DNA of 53,348 nt from a virus (Duplodnaviria; Caudoviricetes): the IMG/VR virus record IMGVR_UViG_3300029787_000068, positions 1 through 53,348 of that record. One strand, written 5' to 3'. The position numbers were made by a program, and so were the translations under genes. A model generated the notes under the pieces. It did no database searches, was not told the DNA's origin, and saw only the letters and a program-made list of their open reading frames with translations. Shown piece after piece: positions 26,448 through 53,012 of this stretch (positions are counted from its first letter, which is position 1; each line of letters begins with the position of its first letter).

Positions 26448-26949
26448 GGGATTTTACTTCGACAGGTTCTTGGTGATAGTCGTTGTTGAATTTACTCTTC
26501 AACCTGTAACGGGTATCATTTAAAAAATACACGGATCTGGCACATTGCATCCATTGGAAGTCAGGGGCAAACGCATCTCCAACGGTGTCGCCCCCTTCTT
26601 TGCCAGAAGAAAACTTTTCCGCACACATAATCAATCCTTGTCGAATATCTGCTAGAGAATTATCGCCCTGAAATATGACTTTGTCTAGCTCTCGGATCTT
26701 ATCTTCGATATCCCAGAGTCGCTCGTTTATTTGTTTCAATTCTTTGTATGTTTCACTTTGAGTGATCTGCTTTGGATGGTGTCCGGCCTGCTGATGCTCG
26801 ATCAAAGCTTTCTCAAGACGGTAAGACTCTTCCCGAACTTGCAGCCTCTTGTCAGGGTCGGACAGACGCTCCATCTTAATTGCCAGAATGCTTAGTCTAT
26901 CCAGGGCTTCGCCAATACTAATCTCAATCTTCACTCCATTAAACGGCAT
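26440..26949 (-). CDS. DUF6165-like protein
   Basis: ISIGEALDRLSILAIK...INERLWDIEDKIR...ARSVY..ND.R...K...E.K pattern. Confidence 0.7.
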   Translation of the reverse strand: MPFNGVKIEISIGEALDRLSILAIKMERLSDPDKRLQVREESYRLEKALIEHQQAGHHPKQITQSETYKELKQINERLWDIEDKIRELDKVIFQGDNSLADIRQGLIMCAEKFSSGKEGGDTVGDAFAPDFQWMQCARSVYFLNDTRYRLKSKFNNDYHQEPVEVKSHA

Positions 26950-27523
26950 AGATCTGTACCTCCTCATCCTCTTCTTCTGAGTTGAACATGTGCTTGAGGA
27001 CTTGCAACGCAAGGTGTGCGTCAGCCATCGCTCGATGGTGTCCCTGGACGGTAATACCTAGCTCTTTACATACTGACGCTAATCCTAATCCCTTGGGATT
27101 CCATCCTCTAGTCGATCCCCACATGTATACCATACTAGCAATGTCAATCGGCATGTCGTTGTGGGGGTAGCCTAGCCGGACCGACGAGTAGGCATGTCTC
27201 AACTGGTGGATGTCGGTGCCGCCCCAAGAGAACAGACGGAATGATTTGTATCGAGTAAACTCTGCCCACGACTTCCACATCTCTTCAAAGGTGGGAGATT
27301 CTTCGAGCATCTCGGGACGCAGGCCACTGAGTTGACTAGTAAACTCCGTGACAAAGTCCATGCGTTCGGGACGGATCAGCTGGCTGTATTCATTTAGAAC
27401 TTGCCAGGATCTGTTCACTAGAATAGCCCCGATCTCGATTATCTCGGGGGTGCCTCCCAGTAAAGCACCGGCATGCGGATCGGTGGTCTCTACATCAAAG
27501 ATTACAAAGTTCGCGTCTATCAT
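26939..27523 (-). CDS. DEDDh 3'-5' exonuclease (ERI-1/KapD-like)
   Basis: IFDVETT, EIIEIGA, WG..D and HRAMADA motifs. Confidence 0.85.
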   Translation of the reverse strand: MIDANFVIFDVETTDPHAGALLGGTPEIIEIGAILVNRSWQVLNEYSQLIRPERMDFVTEFTSQLSGLRPEMLEESPTFEEMWKSWAEFTRYKSFRLFSWGGTDIHQLRHAYSSVRLGYPHNDMPIDIASMVYMWGSTRGWNPKGLGLASVCKELGITVQGHHRAMADAHLALQVLKHMFNSEEEDEEVQIYAV

Positions 27524-27603
27524 AATAAAATGCGGGGGGCCGGTCTTTCTATGGGGGAAAATAAAAAGACCCGCCACCCCGCTACCACAAGGGTATGCTT
27601 TCC

Positions 27604-33230: not shown

Positions 33231-33356
33231 CGGGTGTTTAGGCAGTCACGGACTCACCCGTGGAGGAACCGCTTGATGTGATCGCACCTCCAGTCCGACA
33301 GGGTAAATTATCCCGCCCCTGCGCCGGTTGTTTCGTTTATAAAGCCCCTGGTTGGG

Positions 33357-33602
33357 TCAGCACCCCCTTTCTACACGGGCTGAAAAATCTTTGTTAGCTT
33401 CGATACGAGAATCGAAGTAGTGACCGCATGCCCAGCTGGTGTCTCCCACACCAATCCAACCCGTTACAAATCGGGCTTGAGTGGGGTCAACGGGATGCAG
33501 GTCCACGAGAATAATATATCCGTCTCTCGTTCCCTCTTCAGCGGGGATCAGGCTTGAGGCGACGATCATTCCGTTGATCCTTGGTAGGCAGTCTTGTGAC
33601 AT
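33357..33602 (-). CDS. Hypothetical protein
   Basis: AAGGA RBS after a promoter; FVTGW...W..GHYF motif. Confidence 0.6.
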   Translation of the reverse strand: MSQDCLPRINGMIVASSLIPAEEGTRDGYIILVDLHPVDPTQARFVTGWIGVGDTSWACGHYFDSRIEANKDFSARVERGC

Positions 33603-33642
33603 TGTTTTTTCCTTTGTTGAAGTATCGTTGATTGATGCCCTG

Positions 33643-33670
33643 ATTATAATACCGTTATCGGCAATGTAAA
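33643..33670 (-). promoter_or_regulatory. CCGAT-spacer promoter
   Basis: TTTACA-TTGCCGATAACGGTAT (16 nt)-TATAAT. Confidence 0.7.
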
Positions 33671-33689
33671 CCCCAATTCCTTAAAAAAA

Positions 33690-35304
33690 ATAAAAAAAAA
33701 TCGAGTCCCCTAACTAGGAGGCAGTCCGACTCGGGTTTCCATTCGTGTACTACCCGCCTCGCAGGTGCGCGCCCGCGAGGTGCCACTTGGTACATCTTCA
33801 ACAGCGGGTGAATTCATGTCCGCTGCATCCAACTTCTGCCTCCTAGTTAAAGGACTCGATACGATACGAGGGTAGATCACCGAACACCTTTTTGCTTGCC
33901 TTTAATCCGATGTGGTTCCATCGCTTGCAATCGACGGCATCGGCTGATTCCCTAATGACCCTCGAAATAATCGGGTGGCCTTTACGGGTCGGGCGGGTCG
34001 ATACATCATTAGCTCCCGCCTCCGGCACCTACCACGGTATCCGGCGGTGTCCGGTGATCTAACCTCGATACGAGTGAGTTTTTACTTCTGAGCAGGGTGT
34101 GAGTAAATATGCCCAGAGATTGCGGCGGCGTTTGCTTTAGGGGCTACGTTCCACTCAGGATCAATGTCCACTTTTGTGCTGCATCAGGTGGGACCGTATT
34201 AAGTTCCCAGCTGAGAGGTTTTATTTCAACCCTTCCCCATGTTCGCTCTGCATACCCCCTTCCGAACCTCTTACGAACTTAGGATCAACTCCCACGTTGT
34301 CTTTACACAGTTAGCTTCGATCCGTCCCACAACTGGATTGCACTCTTAGTGCGTAATGCAAAAGCACTCCCGTCACAGGTTGGCCCACTAACTGGCTGAC
34401 ACGGCCCGCCAGATTCGCACTGGGGGTCAGCTTCAAAGATCCGTACTGGTTTATAGCAAGAACCCACTCGATTGAATGACTAAGATCTTGAACCGAAACG
34501 GGGCGATATTCGCTGATCAGGCTTATCAGGAGGTGGGTTCAGCTAATGCTTTCGGCCCTCCTGCGAGATGGTCACACGTTCGCGTTGTGTGAGTCCCGTC
34601 GAGACGATTGACACGGTTCAAGATCTTAGTCACTCGGAGAGTAACCTGGGAGAGGGCATCACCCTGTCGGGTAGTCGAGCGTTATTGGTCCCGTCACTTT
34701 TGATGCCGCCCACCGCAATCGTAGCTGATGAGGAGCGACCATCAAAAGCCAGTTTATTGCAGTGGGTTGGGTGGTTGCTGTCGGAGTGCTTAGTTACTCA
34801 AGGCTACATTAAAACGCCATGTCCCGACCTTAGTGTTGGCTACAACCGTTTCACCCTCCCAGGTTACTCTCAAGAGTGTATTGAAAGGCTGACTCGTAGG
34901 GGAGTTAAACCCCCCGACACTGCATCCGAAAGTGAAACGCTGTAAAACGCTTCGGACTGCGGTTGTTCAATATCGTCATATCGAACCCCGATTGGCCCTT
35001 TACTTTCAGAAGTTACATCAGTGCCGCTTACTCAAGCGAGCCTTTCAATACACTCCATCGAGTGTGAGAGTAGAAGGTTCAAAGATTCACTTCTCCGAAT
35101 GGAGTCACAGCCACTTACAATCGGTCATGGATTTTCAAGCCATTAACTTTTTTTGAATCCTTGAACTTTCTACTCTCGAAGTTTTGTCGTACTGCTTCGC
35201 AGCCGGTGGGTACTTCTCCTCGACTAATCGTCGTGACCCTGTGTGATGTCGTTTGGTTCATTCGCATGTAAGTGAGTCACACAACTCACACTCAACTCTC
35301 ATGT
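33690..35304 (-). ncRNA. Long structured non-coding transcript: leader plus seven stem-closed RNA modules
   Basis: No credible ORF; promoter at 35310-35337; seven abutting 16-25 bp inverted-repeat pairs with G-U bias on the - strand; ends in a U-tract. Confidence 0.8.
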
Positions 35305-35309
35305 TCTTA

Positions 35310-35337
35310 ATAGTACCATTATCGGAAACATTGTCAA
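35310..35337 (-). promoter_or_regulatory. CCGAT-spacer promoter upstream of the ncRNA array
   Basis: TTGACA-ATGTTTCCGATAATGG (16 nt)-TACTAT; nearly identical to 52985-53012. Confidence 0.7.
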
Positions 35338-35428
35338 GCACAATCCAGACAATCTGAGAAAATAGTTTGCCGATAGCGGTTTAACCCTATAAAACAAGGG
35401 AAAACTATTTCTATCTATTTTTAGAAAA

Positions 35429-35444
35429 GTGCAGATGTCTGCAC
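35429..35444. promoter_or_regulatory. 16-bp palindromic site (one of at least ten copies)
   Basis: GTGCAGATGTCTGCAC; other copies are listed in findings. Confidence 0.65.
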
Positions 35445-35483
35445 ATCCGTACAGGTAATCTTTCCGATTTCGGAAGATTGAAA

Positions 35484-36377
35484 TTAGGTTGACACTGTTT
35501 CTAGTTGCTGCAAAAGATTGCGAAGACCTTCGGCCCGCTGCGAACCTCTCAACAAATTGTGTTGATCGCCTTCATCGTTACCGCTTGGAAGTCTGCAAAT
35601 GTATCCGCACATATCCACTTCACCATAAAACTTTGAAGGATCTTGAACTGCGTTCTTACGAAGTTCTGGTTCCCAGTGATCCCACAATCCTAACAAGCCA
35701 AGTCGATAAAGAAGTTCAACCTTGTCGGCTTTGCCGTACATGCACTCTTCATTGAATCGCTTGTCGTGGTTTGGTGTGAACGCTAGTTGTAACTCTGTCA
35801 GTCCGATACTTCGTTGCGTTCCAAAATCATATATTGATTTCAGAACTGGTGGGTCCGTCAAAAATGTATCGAGGTTGTCAACTCTCCATGTGGGGAATGC
35901 AAAGTATCCGGCCTCGGAATGATCTTCGGCAAACATACGAAACTGCATAAACCCATCGTCCCGAAAAAACATTCCACCGTCTTCGGGGCAGCACACATCT
36001 ACACCCTGCTCGAAACTAATATCGAGGCAATGGTTGCGGGCCGGATTTACGTTGGTGATATATTTTAATTTTTCTTTGGCTGATGGAAGGTTGTTGAACT
36101 CGGAGGGGAAGAACGGAATGTGGTAGATGTTTTCTTTTTGAACATCGTAAGCATGTAACATGCTTACAATCTCAATGCATGTTTGATTGTCAGCTATGCG
36201 ATTCAACAACCATCTTTTGCGAACCATGCCGAACTGGGATTCATGCTTCAAAATATATTCTAAATTCTTCAGGGTCTGGCCCTTCGGGTGCCTCGGAGGT
36301 AAATCGTTTCCAAGAATTCTCCATAGATCAAACACCATAACTTTATAACTCCATGAACTGGGTGTGCTGACATTCAT
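35484..36377 (-). CDS. Hypothetical protein, possibly GT-A-like
   Basis: Last gene of the glycosyltransferase operon; N.ARN..L and EDGG; TAATG coupling. Confidence 0.5.
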   Translation of the reverse strand: MNVSTPSSWSYKVMVFDLWRILGNDLPPRHPKGQTLKNLEYILKHESQFGMVRKRWLLNRIADNQTCIEIVSMLHAYDVQKENIYHIPFFPSEFNNLPSAKEKLKYITNVNPARNHCLDISFEQGVDVCCPEDGGMFFRDDGFMQFRMFAEDHSEAGYFAFPTWRVDNLDTFLTDPPVLKSIYDFGTQRSIGLTELQLAFTPNHDKRFNEECMYGKADKVELLYRLGLLGLWDHWEPELRKNAVQDPSKFYGEVDMCGYICRLPSGNDEGDQHNLLRGSQRAEGLRNLLQQLETVST

Positions 36378-36982
36378 TATCGAAGTGCTTCTGTGCGTAA
36401 AGGAATATCGGACAGCACCGATTTTTCCCAAGGTAAAAACATCGAAGTGGTTTCGCAGTCGTCGGTCACATCTTGTTTAGTTTTAACATATCTGTCGTCT
36501 TCAAATTTCCACTTAATATTAAAGTAATCGTCCGAGGTGTCCCACGGATAGTCGTGAGTATGAAGATCGACCGGACAAATATGTGTACGGTATATTGCGA
36601 TGTCGGCATCTCGCAGTCTAAGAAACATGTCCCAGGCAGCGTCCGACTTTCGGATGATTCTTTCGTCGAATCTGCCTACTCTACAAAACAGATTCTGATG
36701 TAGACCGATCAGTCTATGATCCCCCATGTCTACAAATCCATACCCGAAATCTAACAGCGTAACTAGCTCATCCAGATGCTGTCGGCTAGGTCGTGACCAC
36801 TGATCACAAATAATTGTGTATTGACCCTGGCTCTCTGCAACGCACTCATTCCACATCGTGGCTTGAGACTCCCACGGACCGAATAGTCGCGTCCTGGGCC
36901 ATTGTGCGAGCTTGAGACAGGTGACAGCCTTGTCATCGTCTGGCACCAATTTAGTGACTATCGCCTGAGTCGCTTGAGACAT
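36377..36982 (-). CDS. Degenerate GT2-like protein
   Basis: WNECV...Y.II.D and VGRFDER......D.AWD...R. Confidence 0.5.
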   Translation of the reverse strand: MSQATQAIVTKLVPDDDKAVTCLKLAQWPRTRLFGPWESQATMWNECVAESQGQYTIICDQWSRPSRQHLDELVTLLDFGYGFVDMGDHRLIGLHQNLFCRVGRFDERIIRKSDAAWDMFLRLRDADIAIYRTHICPVDLHTHDYPWDTSDDYFNIKWKFEDDRYVKTKQDVTDDCETTSMFLPWEKSVLSDIPLRTEALR

Positions 36983-37607
36983 CTAGCACAGCCTTCCGTA
37001 GCTTATTTTCAATGGATCGAAACTCTGATCGAGTTGTAGATCCTATGGGGTCAAAATCATAGTGGTAGAGAACGCTATCAATTTTATAAAACTTTTCTAC
37101 TTTTGCAGCCATCTCCGTAGACCACTCGGAATCCTCTCCGAAATCCTGGTCAGGGAAAGAAGTCCCCTCGGTGAGCGAACGTCTCCACACGTTGGTATGT
37201 GACGCCTTAGATATGTGTGCATCTTCCGTGATATATCCGGCAGTCACCAGTCGAGGATCGTATGTGCAAAGTATATCACGTTCCAAACCTCCATGGTGAA
37301 GCATCAGATCGTACTGTATAACGTCCACCCCAGGATTTAAACCTATAGCTTGCAAAATGGCATCGACGTAGTCGGGCGAAATTCGGTCATCGTCGTCAAC
37401 GAACGTGAGGTATTCTCCGGTCGCCATTCCCATCAACAGGTTCCGCTTTGTGCCGACAGTATGCACTTGGTTATCCAGCAGTGCAAGGATCTCCACGTCA
37501 TCGCGGCCCGAAGTCTGATCTTGCAATTCTGCAACCATCTCGGGAAAGTGTTTTCCTAGCCGGTCGGGAATGGTCGTGATTAAGATCGAGAGTTTTCGGG
37601 TTCCCAT
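36951..37607 (-). CDS. Glycosyltransferase family 2
   Basis: LSILITT, GTKRN, GEYLTFVDDDD and GED. Confidence 0.85.
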   Translation of the reverse strand: MGTRKLSILITTIPDRLGKHFPEMVAELQDQTSGRDDVEILALLDNQVHTVGTKRNLLMGMATGEYLTFVDDDDRISPDYVDAILQAIGLNPGVDVIQYDLMLHHGGLERDILCTYDPRLVTAGYITEDAHISKASHTNVWRRSLTEGTSFPDQDFGEDSEWSTEMAAKVEKFYKIDSVLYHYDFDPIGSTTRSEFRSIENKLRKAVLDVSSDSGDSH

Positions 37608-38485
37608 ATCCCTGGGATCTTGCTTCGCCCCTGCAAGTGTCTGGTGAAGGTGCATGGATGCTCTTTCCAATTTTTAGGTGTAAACCAATTGTTATACTTT
37701 TGAGAGATGGGAGATCCGGCAAACCAATGGATTCCTATCTGACTCGGAGGAAGGTCGTGACTCCACTCCCATATTTGCTCGATGCCTCTCCAGTTCCAAG
37801 GGTAAACATCATCCCCAGGTGAAGGTGTAAAAAGACGATGATTGTACCTCTCCATGATCCGTTGAGCCATGAAGTGTCCAGGGGAATGAGGTCGTATCTT
37901 TAAAATCTGACACACTCGGTTGGTGCCAAAATCTTGATATTGAGAAGGCTCCCCACCATCTTTACAGCTGTTATACATAAGTTCAAAAAACTTTAGTCCT
38001 GGCTTGCAACCTAAGAATCCAATAGTAAAGTCTCCGCAAGGCAAAGGTGCAACAAGGTCAGAGGACGCACACTTGTGCATTAGGTCGTCCATCGAATGCA
38101 TGTACAAAATATCCATGTCACTGTACCACCCACCGTGTTCATGCAGCACTTTCCACTGGTACATGTCGCACTGATGCACAGGATCCAAGTTACTTGGGAG
38201 ATCAACCACCTGAACATTTATAGGAAGATTGTATGCATCATGCATCCAGTCCGGTCCGTCATATCCGCAGAAGTCTTGTTGCTCTTGTGAAGTCCACACT
38301 GGCTTTGACTCAGAATCTCTCGACACATACAAAGTTGTTTCCCAGCTTGGATTGTGAAGGCAAAAAGTTTGCAGCGTCAAATACCGCAGCCACGACATCT
38401 TCCCGCCCGCCCAAAAAAAACACATTTTCTTGGGTATAGTTGTAACTTTATTCGACACTACCACGGTCCTCCTGACGCTTCCCAC
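37580..38485 (-). CDS. DxD glycosyltransferase (GT32/OCH1-like)
   Basis: IPK...FFW, HNPSWE, D......L..HGGWYSDMD and IHW. Confidence 0.75.
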   Translation of the reverse strand: MGSVRRTVVVSNKVTTIPKKMCFFWAGGKMSWLRYLTLQTFCLHNPSWETTLYVSRDSESKPVWTSQEQQDFCGYDGPDWMHDAYNLPINVQVVDLPSNLDPVHQCDMYQWKVLHEHGGWYSDMDILYMHSMDDLMHKCASSDLVAPLPCGDFTIGFLGCKPGLKFFELMYNSCKDGGEPSQYQDFGTNRVCQILKIRPHSPGHFMAQRIMERYNHRLFTPSPGDDVYPWNWRGIEQIWEWSHDLPPSQIGIHWFAGSPISQKYNNWFTPKNWKEHPCTFTRHLQGRSKIPGIWEPENSRS

Positions 38486-39198
38486 TTAATCTCTCCCGCC
38501 TCGGCCTGAGCTTTCTTTCGTTCATACAACTCTTTCGAGGGTATTACTAAACTACTCAGCCCTTGGGGTCGATGGTGATTCTGGTGGTAGCCTACAATTT
38601 GAGATGTAAAGACTGGTTTTAATCCCAGCCCATGGATTAAACAATCACCGAACCAATCGTCATCGTATCCTGGTTCGGTGAACTCTTCGTCATTGCCCCC
38701 AACAGCATACAGATCATTCTTCCACAACGCCCCCAAAAAAAAGAAAGGTCGTCTGTAGCTAGGGCTAGTGTATTCCATCAAAACTTGAAACTCTGGGGGA
38801 ACCCCTTCGATGTTGAACACAGTTGCAATGACAAATTCTTTAGGGTTCAGGGCGTAGCACAAATCTTGAATTGCGTTTCCTCGGTGTATTACGTCATCGG
38901 ACTGGGCAATAATAATCTCACCCTTTGCATGTCGGTACGCATGATTGCGAGCAACCGAAGGGTTTCGATATCGAGAATTTTCTAATCGGTGAAGTTTAAA
39001 GTTCGCATATCTTTCCCACTGCTTACACATCCACCAAGTCTCATCGTCAGATCCGTCATCTACAACAATCACCTCGAACTGTGGCGAATCATTTATCTGA
39101 GCATAGATAGATTCAAGAACTCGTTTAAGGTATTCTTCTTTGTTCTTAGTTGCAATGCATATCGATGCAGTTACACTTCCACAGGTTCGACAACTCAT
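38458..39198 (-). CDS. Glycosyltransferase family 2
   Basis: SICIATKN, EVIVVDDGSDD, ARN, SDD and GG.DEEF..PGYDD. Confidence 0.85.
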   Translation of the reverse strand: MSCRTCGSVTASICIATKNKEEYLKRVLESIYAQINDSPQFEVIVVDDGSDDETWWMCKQWERYANFKLHRLENSRYRNPSVARNHAYRHAKGEIIIAQSDDVIHRGNAIQDLCYALNPKEFVIATVFNIEGVPPEFQVLMEYTSPSYRRPFFFLGALWKNDLYAVGGNDEEFTEPGYDDDWFGDCLIHGLGLKPVFTSQIVGYHQNHHRPQGLSSLVIPSKELYERKKAQAEAGEIKWEASGGPW

Positions 39199-39222
39199 TG
39201 ATCGAGAATCTCCTCGTCCAGT

Positions 39223-40329
39223 TTATACAAAATCGACGTGTCGTGGTTTGGGTTCCAGAGCATACAGAATAGTTCGATTCTTATTGTTAAACATACACCT
39301 CGGACAGCCTCGGGCATCAAACTCATTGAAGTTGTGCTTCTTCATGTCGGATTCCCAGAGAGACTTGAAAGTCTGATCTTTTATCGACCCGATTATGCCC
39401 TTCTCGTTGTAAGCTAAAACACAGCATCGGTACACGTTCAGGTCGCCACCGATGTAAGTGTTAAACTCTTGATATCCACAGTATGAATACTCGGGGTTCT
39501 TCAGTTCCAGATCCTCGGTCCGGTCTCCAAAGTTGTTGAAGACTTTGAAACTTTCGTCGGACAGGCTCGACGCTTCTCTAATGATCGCCTTTGCTTCGTC
39601 ATAGAATCCATCGAAGTAGCTGATACCCTCGTCCTGAAAGATCGCAGATATTCGTACATTGTCCACGCCTGCTTCTTTTGCTCGGACAGTGCAGTCAAGT
39701 ATCTCTTTCCAGTTTTCCTTGGTGACTACAAAACCAATTCCAATGATCAGGTCGGAGTTGGGTGTTTCTTTTTTAGCCGCACACAAGTCGTCGATGTTTT
39801 TCCAGGTACGATGAAAGTGTGTCTTTGCAACTCGTCGAATGCCGGAGTAGGTGTCTTCGTTTCCGGCATCGATAGAAAACCGAACCCACTGACCTCGAAG
39901 GTATGACTCGATCAATCCCTTTCTAAACACCGCCCCGTTGCTAACAACCCCAAGACCCATACCTCGGTCCGATACTGCATTGAAGATCTCGATGTGATCG
40001 GGGTGTACAGTCGGCTCACCTCCACCAGTTACTTGGATCGCACCGACTCCCATCTCGTAGCAATCGTCAAGGATCTCCATAACTTTTGGAGTCTCGATCA
40101 TCCGCTTCGGATTATTAGTCCCAACCTGGGCGAGTTCGGAGTCGCCAGCAAAAAGTTGGTTCGAGGTATAACCCGACATCCTGTATGCACAGAACGAACA
40201 GTCTTGATTGCACAAGTCCGAAATAATTAGCTGGACTTGAGTTGGAACAATTTGTTTTCCTGATCTGATACTATCTATCCGCTCTCGGTGATGTATCACT
40301 TTCAACGGGCTATATGGTGATCCTTCCAT
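39223..40329 (-). CDS. Radical SAM enzyme with SPASM/twitch domain
   Basis: CNQDCSFC, TGGGEP and C-terminal C...G..YRCC...IG......W...CxxC. Confidence 0.9.
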   Translation of the reverse strand: MEGSPYSPLKVIHHRERIDSIRSGKQIVPTQVQLIISDLCNQDCSFCAYRMSGYTSNQLFAGDSELAQVGTNNPKRMIETPKVMEILDDCYEMGVGAIQVTGGGEPTVHPDHIEIFNAVSDRGMGLGVVSNGAVFRKGLIESYLRGQWVRFSIDAGNEDTYSGIRRVAKTHFHRTWKNIDDLCAAKKETPNSDLIIGIGFVVTKENWKEILDCTVRAKEAGVDNVRISAIFQDEGISYFDGFYDEAKAIIREASSLSDESFKVFNNFGDRTEDLELKNPEYSYCGYQEFNTYIGGDLNVYRCCVLAYNEKGIIGSIKDQTFKSLWESDMKKHNFNEFDARGCPRCMFNNKNRTILYALEPKPRHVDFV

Positions 40330-40780: not shown

Positions 40781-41827
40781 TTGATGGCTAATCATACACC
40801 AGGATTTCGGTGGACCGAGGAGAAAGAGAAGTATATTAAAAAGAGATTGAAGGAGGATCCAGATACTTCTCTTTTAACTTTTGCAAAGTATTTTGGAATC
40901 TCTGCAAACGCTGTTCGTAAAAAAATCAAAAAGATGGGGTTCACTCTTCGAGGTCTTCGCAGAGGAGAATTCCACATCGAGTCGGAGACTGAGACAGAGA
41001 AAATAGATACAGCAGATGTGTGGGCAGCATACGAAAAACAAAACGAGAAGAAGATCGCCAAGCATAAAAACGATGGCAGATACATCGCAGAGTTTCCTGA
41101 AGAAGTTATCGCGGTGTCATTTATTAGCGATCAACACATTGCGGGCAATAACATCGTGGCTCTCAAGCGAATGCGTGAAGATGCGGAATTGATTGCAAAC
41201 ACTCCTGGTCTGTTCGCTTGTCTGGGCGGTGACTCTATCGACAACCATATCAAACACAGAGCAGCCATTCTCGCGGCCCGAACTACTCCAGGCGATCAGT
41301 ACGAACTATTCGATTACTACTTGAGTCTTTTCTCTGACAAGATCCTTGGAGTGATTACAGGCAACCACGACGACTGGACTCCCCAGGTCGCAGGTGTGGA
41401 CGTGATCGCACAGATTTGTGCAAAGCATGGGATCTCGTTTAGCAGCGACGAGGCTCGCATCCAGGCATATGTAGGCGATACAGAATACCGACTTGCATGG
41501 AGACACAAATATCGCTTTGGTAGCCAGCTGAACCAAACACACAGCCCGAAACAATGGTATCGGTTCGGACCAGAACCCTTCGACATCGGAGTTGTGTGCC
41601 ACCACCATGAGACTGCAATCGAGGCTTGCATGATGCACGGCAAGCAGACCTGGGTCTGTCGACCAGGATCCTATCAGATCAATTCAGCCTACGGTCGCCA
41701 GGGCGGGTTCAACGATTCCATCCCCGCCTGTCCGACATTCTTGCTGTACCCGAATCACAGACGCATCATCGGATTCCCCGATGTTCGTGATGCAGTGATC
41801 ACGCTGAATGCGGAGCGGGGTCAGTAA
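40781..41827 (+). CDS. Calcineurin-like metallophosphoesterase with N-terminal HTH
   Basis: SDQH, GGD..DN, GNHD, RH and HHH motifs; WTEEKE...FGISANAVRKK HTH; AAGGAG RBS. Confidence 0.85.
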   Translation: MMANHTPGFRWTEEKEKYIKKRLKEDPDTSLLTFAKYFGISANAVRKKIKKMGFTLRGLRRGEFHIESETETEKIDTADVWAAYEKQNEKKIAKHKNDGRYIAEFPEEVIAVSFISDQHIAGNNIVALKRMREDAELIANTPGLFACLGGDSIDNHIKHRAAILAARTTPGDQYELFDYYLSLFSDKILGVITGNHDDWTPQVAGVDVIAQICAKHGISFSSDEARIQAYVGDTEYRLAWRHKYRFGSQLNQTHSPKQWYRFGPEPFDIGVVCHHHETAIEACMMHGKQTWVCRPGSYQINSAYGRQGGFNDSIPACPTFLLYPNHRRIIGFPDVRDAVITLNAERGQ

Positions 41828-46789: not shown

Positions 46790-47470
46790 CACTATATATT
46801 GTATGCGTGTATGTACCCTATGTATGTGTGTGTAATGCTATGCAATTGTTTGCTTGATGCTACGCTGTATGTGCTATGTATTGTGTGTGTGGCACCCCCC
46901 ACCCCCTATGTGTAAATTTATTTATTCATTGTGTGTGTCCCCCCTATGTGTCATGTGTGTAAATTATTTGTGTGATGATGTTCATGTGATGTGTGTATGT
47001 GTATGCCTACTATGTGTATGTATATGTATGTGATGTATGCTATGTGTATGTGCTATGTGTTAGCTATGTGTATGTGTATGTATGTGTATTGATTAGCTAT
47101 GTATGTATGTACTATGTATGTATTATGTTATATGTATGTGTATGTACCCCCCCTCTCTCCCCCTCAGCCCACCACGTATGTATGTACCCCCCTCCGGTAT
47201 TAAAATTGAGATGTGTATCCTACCCCCCTCGGGCTACCTCTTTTGTGCAGCTGTATGCACCACCACCCCTACCCCCCTCGGGATGTCCTCGGGATATTGA
47301 AAGAGATCCGCTGTTCGTTCGGGTTAGTTAACTGAAAGATCTTAACCTTTAAGAGATATGTAGATATCTTTGTAGATCTTGATAATAATAAGAGGCACCC
47401 CTACCCCCACCCCCCTACGCGCGATGTACTATGCGTGCGCGCGCGTTATATACCCCCTATAGTCCCCCTT
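46790..47470. repeat. Low-complexity TATG/TGTG tract followed by repeated TACCCCCC boxes
   Basis: Degenerate (TATG/TG)n at 46790-47145; C-tracts near 47143, 47183, 47221, 47270, 47402 and 47451. Confidence 0.8.
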
Positions 47471-47605
47471 TTGGGCGTTTCGCTGCGCTCTGTTTCCAGC
47501 AAGCTATAGTATCGGGGATTATTTTTGTGCCGCTACCGGCTAAATAAGAGCCTCTCAGACCTACCCAGGGAGGAGTAAAATCTGAGAGACTCGACTCGCG
47601 AATTC

Positions 47606-50437: not shown

Positions 50438-50528
50438 GTAAAATCCACCTTTTTCGGAAAGTTTTTTTTGCCTTATTTTATAGGGGTTTCCGACCGAATA
50501 ATTTTTTATTTTTATTGGCCGATATCGG

Positions 50529-50557
50529 TTGACATGCCGATACTAATAGTGTCTAAT
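50529..50557 (+). promoter_or_regulatory. CCGAT-spacer promoter (divergent)
   Basis: TTGACA-TGCCGATACTAATAGTG (17 nt)-TCTAAT. Confidence 0.6.
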
Positions 50558-50734
50558 AGCTTACATGAGAGTTGGGATTGGTTATCCCTTACATGCGTTT
50601 GAACCAAGTGACAAACCAACGGCAAAGATGCAGTAATGCAAGTTGAGCCGTGAGCCGGTTGCCGGTGTCGAATCAATAAGTTAGTTATCAAAAAACAATT
50701 TGTGTTTCTTTTCTCTTTTCAACAAGGAGCGATT

Positions 50735-52618: not shown

Positions 52619-52774
52619 TCAGTCGTCAGCTTCGACGACCTCAAACCCCGAAGGGACAAACCATCGGGACATGATGTCCCGACCGTGGGCTTCAGCTTCG
52701 GCAACGGTATCAAACCGCTTCCCGTTGTAGCTGAATCCCGATTCCCCTGGGATGATAAATGCAACCTTGTACAT
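52619..52774 (-). CDS. 51-aa hypothetical protein
   Basis: GGGAG RBS: MYKVAFIIPGESGFSYNGKRFDTVAEAEAHGRDIMSRWFVPSGFEVVEADD. Not in the ORF track. Confidence 0.6.
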   Translation of the reverse strand: MYKVAFIIPGESGFSYNGKRFDTVAEAEAHGRDIMSRWFVPSGFEVVEADD

Positions 52775-52984: not shown

Positions 52985-53012
52985 ATATTACCATAATCGG
53001 ATACATTGTCAA
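52985..53012 (-). promoter_or_regulatory. CCGAT-spacer promoter
   Basis: TTGACA-ATGTATCCGATTATGG (16 nt)-TAATAT. Confidence 0.7.

Follow-up and report, generated by a model that had tools for sequence, protein, structure and literature searches.

A shared GAG/CUC motif at the junctions of a seven-module non-coding RNA gene in an uncultured marine phage

Several structured RNAs can be carried by one transcript and each be enclosed by its own flanks: the RNase III processing stalks of bacterial 16S and 23S rRNA and the RNase III sites of phage T7 transcripts are arranged in this way. The idealised substrate of the E. coli enzyme (PMC3867540) is a helix of 22 bp with "distal boxes" at its ends, about 11 bp from the cut. 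The subject of this paper is an array of RNA modules that, by analogy, would work most like these stalks. It lies on the minus strand of IMG/VR record IMGVR_UViG_3300029787_000068, from an uncultured marine phage (Duplodnaviria; Caudoviricetes), which was analysed at its full length of 53,348 nucleotides (positions 1 to 53,348; "the window" in what follows). The array is a non-coding RNA gene of 1.6 kb; each of its seven modules is closed by a helix of its own, and a short motif, GAG on the 5' strand facing CUC (once UUC) on the 3' strand, recurs at the foot of all seven helices.

The likeness of the predicted fold to RNase III stalks extends to the size of the helices (near two turns, 19-25 bp in six of the seven, with M5 at only 15 bp) and to a conserved mismatch in the middle of the M1 helix. 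The differences are that the cargo consists of seven unrelated RNAs in place of rRNAs or mRNAs, and that a triplet common to all helix bases is not described for RNase III substrates, whose distal box is said to have no conserved sequence (PMC3867540). GOLLD and ROOL (cryo-EM study PMC12286853) share with the array the character of very large, highly structured, multi-domain non-coding RNAs carried by phages. The array differs from them in that its modules are strung in a line, closed one by one and gained or lost as units, rather than making up one integrated fold. Clustered animal microRNA precursors have basal-stem motifs, common to different hairpins, that guide Microprocessor; here the likeness is one of logic only, these being simple eukaryotic hairpins served by a different enzyme. 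Integron arrays consist of units with imperfect inverted repeats that differ in sequence, share a short basal core and are gained and lost whole. In the phage array, however, the inverted repeats enclose the units instead of following them, the attC core consensus is absent, and selection acts on the transcribed RNA strand.

To our knowledge, few phage non-coding RNAs exceed a kilobase, and for none of them has a function been assigned. No description of an array of this kind was found in the full-text literature, with the reservation that supplements (for example that of PMC10690425, a 2023 catalogue of candidate viral structured RNAs) might list one. What is new here is the junction code with its statistics, the asymmetry in favour of the 5' strand, the mapping of module insertions and deletions onto the code, and the link to a transcript-start motif.

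Seven clamped modules and the motif at their feet

The gene-free unit between promoter and terminator (35337-33683, minus strand) folds into a leader and seven abutting modules, M1 to M7, with linkers of 0-9 nt between them (Table 1). The closing helices were located by an inverted-repeat scan that ignores sequence content; GAG is found within the first four positions of the 5' strand in 7/7 of them, partnered by CUC or, in M4, by UUC. An earlier, sequence-only reading of this DNA had quoted seven basal strings (GAGAGU..ACUCUC and its six counterparts), each of which is present on the minus strand as given, and had read the junctions before M5, M6 and M7 correctly as AAUCGAG, UAUCGAG and UAUCGAG. 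It was also right that the stems otherwise differ: the modules share nothing but the motif at their base, a comparison among them returning only two 9-nt matches (E 0.48-0.8) and no detectable paralogy.

Might seven GAGs have come together by accident? The triplet occurs 33 times in 1604 nt, which amounts to about 0.08 per helix base by chance, and the probability of seven out of seven, after allowing for 64 triplets, is estimated at about 1e-6. When helices of at least 3 bp are counted in the fold of the full transcript, GAG..YUY stands at offset 0-1 in six of 75, namely five closing stems and one helix of the leader; the other internal helices, about 69 of the 75, are without it. M7, whose motif begins at offset 3, escapes this count. 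The signature is a genuine one and not the product of chance. (A technical note: a scan for GAG-anchored helices with a threshold of 11 bp or more proved too permissive, yielding many chance matches of 11-13 bp.)

The array was found in only two haplotypes, the seven-module form of the window and of contig L037, and a four-module form (leader, M1, M2, M4 and M5) represented by G003, which is the same as L007, and by L035 and L036. If the closing and leader helices of both are taken together, the 5' GAG is present in 13/13, while the 3' partner is CUC in 9/13 and has U for C in four (M4 and the leader in both forms, the M5 of G003 being counted within these). A 5' GAG that is invariant while its 3' partner drifts from C to U points to sequence-specific reading of the 5' junction, and the conserved element, to judge by these alignments, is the sequence of the 5' strand together with pairing, and not particular base pairs. 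The base before GAG is C in five of the seven modules (unpaired in M1 and M4) and the base preceding that is U in six of the seven, so that the junction code can be written ...CUC-N(0-9)-(U)C-GAG..., that is, the base of the clamp with a preferred 5' flank.

It is the minus strand that folds better, and it folds as a row of independent modules. The minimum-free-energy fold and the centroid fold both show the seven closed domains; the z-score is -12.4 over M1-M4 and -5.5 over M5-M7, and 0/20 shuffles are as stable in either case. For M1-M4 the fold energy is -292 kcal/mol on the minus strand and -274 kcal/mol on the plus strand, and the helices of M2, M3, M6 and M7 are longer on the minus strand, because G.U pairs become A.C mismatches on the other. 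In the whole 53-kb window, on both strands, helices of at least 19 pairs that span 60-460 nt occur only in the array and all others have at most 17 pairs (TG/TA repeat rows at 46900-47500 having been dropped before the scan was read). The closure of M5 is the least certain of the seven, because the full-transcript fold refolds M5 into a long-range alternative. The centroid fold pairs the M1-M2 linker with the start of M5, and the leader also has an alternative partner in that linker: 35296-35285 can form 12 bp with it (helix 35296/35057), leader GUUGAGUGUGAG lying against linker CUCACACUCGAU.

The pattern of substitution between the two haplotypes shows the closing helices to be under selection. 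Among 276 consensus pairs of the leader, M1, M2, M4 and M5 there are 8 compensatory changes, 11 wobble-compatible changes and 0 breaks, a zero that is partly built in, because these two sequences also supplied the consensus structure. Columns that differ number 27/552 where paired and 127/461 where unpaired. M1 is the most telling case: its upper stem carries 4 compensatory changes and 1 wobble change relative to G003, its basal 8 bp and its A.C mismatch are unchanged, and identity over the whole module is only 52%, the differences being mainly in the head. Because the helix has been kept through 4 double changes while the head diverges, the helix itself is the selected part. Other modules follow suit: M2, over 67 pairs, has 0 breaks against 3 compensatory and 3 wobble changes, and M4, over 45 pairs, has 0 breaks against 3 changes that are wobble-compatible.

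Table 1. The promoter-to-terminator unit, listed in the direction of transcription (M, module; G003, four-module haplotype)
Feature	Positions	Strand	Remarks
Sigma-70-type promoter, TTGACA-16-(TG)TACTAT	35310..35337	-	10/12 hexamer matches, TG extension; kept in G003
Start-of-transcript motif CAUGAGAGUU (putative +1 region)	35294..35303	-	10-mer found behind three promoter-like sites
Leader L0	35178..35303	-	126 nt; three small hairpins closed by a 5-bp helix GAGUU..AACUU; 1 compensatory change relative to G003, 0 breaks
M1	35066..35177	-	Closing helix GAGAGU..ACUCUC, 23 pairs in 24 positions, central A.C mismatch; variable head
M1-M2 linker ACACUCGAU	35057..35065	-	Repeats CACUC(G); complementary to leader GAGUGUGAG and M5-start AUCGAGUG
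M2	34873..35056	-	Closing helix (G)GAGUGU..ACACUC(U), 23/24
M3	34637..34871	-	Closing helix GAGAGU..ACUCUC, 19/20; whole unit absent from four-module haplotype
M4	34474..34635	-	Closing helix GAGUGA..UCAUUC, 23/24; third pair G.U
M5	34071..34470	-	400 nt; closing helix CGAGUG..CACUCG, 15/16; core identical in both haplotypes over about 180 nt
M6	33867..34067	-	Closing helix CGAGGU..CCCUCG, 21/22; sixth position U.C mismatch; absent from four-module haplotype
M7	33700..33860	-	Perfect 25-bp closing helix AUCGAGUC..GACUCGAU, doubling as terminator hairpin; absent from four-module haplotype
Terminator U-tract, U8-A-U8	33683..33699	-	Directly after the last paired U at 33700; aligns with the U-run behind M5 in G003

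Whole modules are gained or lost at the junctions

M3 on the one hand and M6+M7 on the other are either there in full or missing in full, and the breakpoints fall within the CUC/GAG junctions. Where the window reads ACACUC/UU-GAGAG...CUCUC/CGAGUG around M3, G003 reads ACACUC/CGAGUG, an exact join at the repeated CUC. M6+M7 are missing from G003 as a block, and the 3' strand of the M5 closing helix there runs directly into the terminator U-run, so that in both forms the clamp of the last module is the terminator hairpin. The sequence-only reading had seen in the motif either a common determinant for a processing nuclease or binding protein, or the scar of a mechanism that inserts modules. Gain or loss of whole modules at the junctions fits the second half of that proposal, with insertion indistinguishable from deletion for want of an outgroup; the first half stays an inference. 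The same reading would have been refuted by homologous arrays lacking the signature, and this is not the case, because the four-module array, the only homologous one found, keeps it: the 5' GAG is present in 4/4 shared modules, and the 3' side is CUC or UUC in 3/4 and CUU in the terminal one.

The shared array segments of the two haplotypes have 84-90% blastn identity; an array-flanking protein is 78% and the terminase 96% identical between G003 and the window. L037, which is 99.7% identical to the window, differs from it at six positions, all in M5, and at 34130 and 34132 it carries the allele of the four-module form; exchange between haplotypes is a possible origin of these two letters. Variation of another kind touches M7: at 33746-33752, in an internal hairpin loop, contigs from a single marine DNA run either have 34 additional letters or continue differently, which indicates natural microdiversity in the head of the module. 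On the G003 side, the interval between the array terminator and an 81-aa gene (L007 8157-8390) contains an extra small open reading frame (ORF), another terminator and a duplicated ribosome-binding region.

The distribution of the array is narrow: two haplotypes, in marine metagenomes of several studies (the locus is present in those of about 13). A 20-mer from M5 recovers three contigs from JGI metagenomes, two of them the same sequence as G003 and the third a 99.7% match to the window, and has 0 matches in prokaryote genomes, as does the promoter-plus-start pattern. In IMG/VR, an exact-pattern scan with an M5 28-mer finds only G003, and 20-25-mers of M3, M6 and M7 find 0 matches each; a distant-mode nucleotide search of the array against a phage database also returned no match. 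More distant arrays may exist, because exact patterns miss diverged relatives. Approached from the protein family encoded upstream of the array (284/315 aa, 48 relatives, twelve loci in IMG/VR), the outcome is similar: of 8 loci with full-length matches to the upstream protein, only G003 has an ORF-free stretch downstream. In G001, G002, G004 and G005, whose upstream proteins are 36-50% identical, the equivalent position is taken by ordinary genes, and long-range helices form no cluster anywhere in the sequence examined; in G004 and G005 a gap scan that counted ORFs of at least 80 aa found no ORF-free stretch of at least 450 nt away from a contig end. (G001 has an oddity of its own, an uninterrupted frame at L030 9148-19998 that exceeds 3,617 codons and runs off the end of the contig.)

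The promoter of the array has a near-identical copy at 52985-53012 (minus strand), where 0 would be expected by chance, and the 10-mer CAUGAGAGUU is repeated identically downstream of promoter-like sites at 35303 (minus), 52978 (minus) and 50564 (plus). The three sites, 52985-53012 (minus), 35310-35337 (minus) and about 50520-50573 (plus), have an extended consensus in common, followed by identical CATGAGAGTT, and they probably constitute a phage-specific promoter class with a conserved initial transcribed sequence. Because all three precede the same CATGAGAGTT, transcripts of this phage probably begin (CAU)GAGAGUU, with the putative start at CAUGAGAG; these are the same letters that open M1 and M3.

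The unit matches no family to which it might have been assigned. Searched over the whole window at gathering score, Rfam 15 yields 0 matches; with the limit relaxed to E 10 for 33300-35600, a single chance match appears, to mir-191 (E 7.2) on the plus strand outside the array. Without a covariance-model match, GOLLD, ROOL, OLE, HEARO and the other Rfam 15 families are ruled out. Punctuation by self-cleaving ribozymes (hammerhead, twister, pistol, hatchet or HDV-like) was likewise rejected, there being no Rfam match at that same E limit and linkers of only 0-9 nt. ARAGORN finds 0 tRNA or tmRNA genes in the window and 0 in G001 and G002, and the array is not a row of cloverleaves; nor is it a CRISPR, TIGR or other repeat-spacer array, since only the 3-6 nt base motif recurs among the modules. 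Coding was considered for the 125-aa and 74-aa frames of the plus strand and for small frames of the minus strand, and rejected: frames between 33603 and 35483 have no Pfam match at or above the curated family cutoff, and the 125-aa frame spans M3, a module that G003 lacks.

What the motif might be for

The reading that we favour, tentatively and prepared to see it fail, is that GAG/CUC is a common recognition or processing handle placed on two-turn stalks of RNase III type. Seven unrelated, autonomous modules would be produced with a leader in one transcript, each clamped by a helix of about two turns; a single trans-acting factor would treat all seven alike by way of the foot of the clamp (GAG/CUC with its UC flank); and this factor, most likely a double-strand-specific nuclease of RNase III type supplied by the host, or else a protein that binds helix ends, would release the modules from their common precursor, as rRNAs are freed from their stalks in an rRNA operon, or mark them. 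At the helix end, GAG/CUC would then take the place of the distal box, which in substrates of E. coli RNase III lies about 11 bp from the cut. This common handle is favoured because several RNAs are each enclosed by their own flanks, as in the rRNA operon stalks. The closing helices, of 23, 23, 19, 23, 15, 21 and 25 pairs, have the length of RNase III stalks (M5 is short), and cluster at the 22 bp, or two A-helical turns, of the idealised substrate.

Several considerations weigh against it. 1) The M5 helix, with 15 bp, is short for RNase III. 2) The 72 ORFs of the window that were scanned yielded no domain of RNase III, of a Cas6-like protein or of any other RNA endonuclease, and likewise no reverse transcriptase or integrase. 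3) The invariance of the basal pairs is weak evidence when taken alone, because it comes from only two haplotypes, 84-90% identical, for which about 2 changes would be expected in 24 positions (estimate). 4) The terminal module of the four-module haplotype has CUU for CUC, and because of this the exact basal pairs cannot be indispensable. 5) The evidence from RNA consists of a single 264-nt contig inside M5 (34082-34343) from one metatranscriptome library, which may contain DNA. All four sequencing runs that were compared with the locus were assembled contigs, a form unable to show RNA ends; no joints or end pile-ups were seen in them, and missing cover elsewhere is uninformative. 6) The known RNase III rules predict no conserved distal-box sequence: the distal box has none, yet substitutions there lower reactivity (PMC3867540).

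Could the motif instead be a recombination joint? CUC...GAG would in that case be microhomology for the deletion, duplication and exchange of modules, with no role in the RNA, and the signature would persist since modules that carry it move without damaging their neighbours. Both haplotype indels break inside the junction motif, that of M3 exactly at a repeated CUC, and four breakpoints no more than 3 nt from eight junctions in 1.5 kb have a chance probability of about 2e-6 (estimate); to this can be added the tandem UAUCG-UAUCG of the M6-M7 linker and the contig of the seven-module type that has the other haplotype's allele at 34132/34130, suggesting exchange. However, breakpoints at junctions are expected under every model, because selection removes indels that break modules. 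Moreover, a homology of 3-6 bases is so short that nothing would require its conservation, since illegitimate recombination takes whatever sequence it finds; for M6+M7 the two haplotypes are not related by a clean repeat join; and no copies of M3, M6 or M7 were found in IMG/VR (by 20-25-mers), in the rest of G003 or in the phage database. An invariant 5' GAG with a drifting 3' side is also left unexplained. We consider this explanation unlikely, if one to be kept in mind.

The letters with which the transcripts probably begin suggest a different origin: the modules might descend from a stand-alone small-RNA gene, or from tandem duplicates of one, whose first bases were (CAU)GAGAGUU and whose 3' end paired back onto them as a terminator stem, fusion having left GAG/CUC behind. 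The identical CAUGAGAGUU behind three promoter-like sites of the window fits this proposal, and so do the opening letters GAGAGUA of M1 and M3, next to GAGAGUU in the leader. A module followed by a U-run is, moreover, a working stand-alone design, because in both haplotypes the clamp of the last module serves as terminator hairpin; and inheritance would explain why it is the 5' side alone that is conserved. That the interiors of the modules have no detected similarity speaks against common descent; the force of this objection is lessened by the head of M1, which has diverged beyond alignment while its neighbours remain about 90% identical, and because of which one may suppose that paralogy between modules could be erased quickly. 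The remaining difficulties are that M2 and M4-M7 share only GAG with the start motif (GAGUG in M2, M4 and M5), that linkers of 0-9 nt hold no remnant of a promoter or U-run, and that the transcription start is itself putative. Inheritance also accounts for the origin of the motif but not for its staying unchanged. On balance it seems to us improbable.

We are doubtful to about the same degree of a purely structural interpretation, in which GAG/CUC is a stable, purine-first clamp that insulates the modules or lets adjacent helices stack, arrived at by convergence and read by no factor. Linkers of 0-9 nt would allow neighbouring helices to stack, the clamps have purine-rich 5' strands, and a G accepts either C or U opposite it. 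But many GC-rich triplets would stabilise a helix equally well; identical triplets in 7/7 modules together with a preferred unpaired UC flank are not what convergence on stability would be expected to yield; and the motif is found in none of the approximately 69 remaining internal helices of the 75.

These explanations (microhomology, inheritance of a transcript start, a folding clamp) and the favoured one, a handle for recognition or processing, are not mutually exclusive. One can go further and imagine an "RNA cassette rack", on which unrelated RNAs are racked and a single code (CUC/(U)C-GAG, at the base of each two-turn helix) serves both as the mark for their release and as the joint at which cassettes are gained, lost and exchanged between phages, an RNA-level counterpart of the integron cassette; we regard this composite as a long shot. 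That the units are instead DNA-level inverted repeats (transposon-like termini, attC-like sites, or an origin or packaging signal) is very improbable: a row of units bounded by inverted repeats with conserved outermost bases does have the outline of the ends of miniature inverted-repeat transposable elements (MITEs) or of attC sites, but G.U pairs favour the minus-strand fold in the energies and helix lengths given above, changes between haplotypes include A-to-G substitutions that give G.U on that strand, the array is bracketed by promoter and terminator, its units are without ORFs, the window record and G003 hold no other copy of a module, and the 72 ORFs scanned include no integrase and no transposase match at or above the curated cutoff. 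MITEs and elements derived from insertion sequences were excluded as such, a self-search returning only the array and the promoter copy, with no extra copies in G003; so was an integron cassette array, for want of an integrase domain in those 72 ORFs and of a Pfam match at or above the curated cutoff among the ORFs of the array.

Whatever the motif does, the unit on which selection acts is directly visible in this locus: it is the autonomous module, closed by its own helix, and every junction bears a short conserved code. If that code is a mark for processing or binding, one promoter would deliver seven structured RNAs, possibly decoys, scaffolds or regulators; and if similar codes hold in other stem-clamped phage arrays, these would make up a new class of phage RNA locus.

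Neighbouring genes and other features of the window

The source record, estimated to be 46% complete, is that of a phage with head, portal and terminase genes and many glycosyltransferases. Two of its enzymes had been put forward by the sequence-only reading as speculative candidates for maturation of the RNA ends, with their co-occurrence with the array in related phages as a check, and neither is supported by the comparison. The ERI-1/KapD-like (DEDDh) exonuclease (26939-27577), which matches a PHROG annotated as DNA polymerase exonuclease subunit, is present in 5/5 related phage records, four of them without an array in the sequence examined; the SbcD-like phosphoesterase (40781-41827), which matches a PHROG annotated as DNA repair exonuclease, is present in 3/5, two of them without an array. 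Each enzyme is found in array-less records, and both families are annotated for DNA replication or repair.

The array adjoins the end of a gene cluster on the minus strand (36377-40329) that encodes a radical SAM/SPASM enzyme, 3-4 glycosyltransferases and the conserved 284-aa protein family, in which R, H, D, N and E residues are invariant. The leader behind the 52985-53012 promoter contains, at 52960-52935 (minus strand), a 9-bp hairpin, CUUGAGUUU/AAACUCAAG, whose loop reads GCUCUUUAAAGA, 10 letters identical to the boxA antitermination motif of rRNA operons. This leader, 220 nt long and followed by a small ORF with its start at 52773, also holds two direct copies, at about 52934-52909 and 52869-52843 (minus strand), of an element of about 27 nt, GCGGUUG-N4-GAACCGUAGAA-N-AUCC. 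Elsewhere in the window, a degenerate TG/TA-rich tandem repeat with periods of 4, 6, 15 and 54 occupies 46992-47145, where it overlaps a 112-aa frame, and is followed by a GC-alternating run near 47440.

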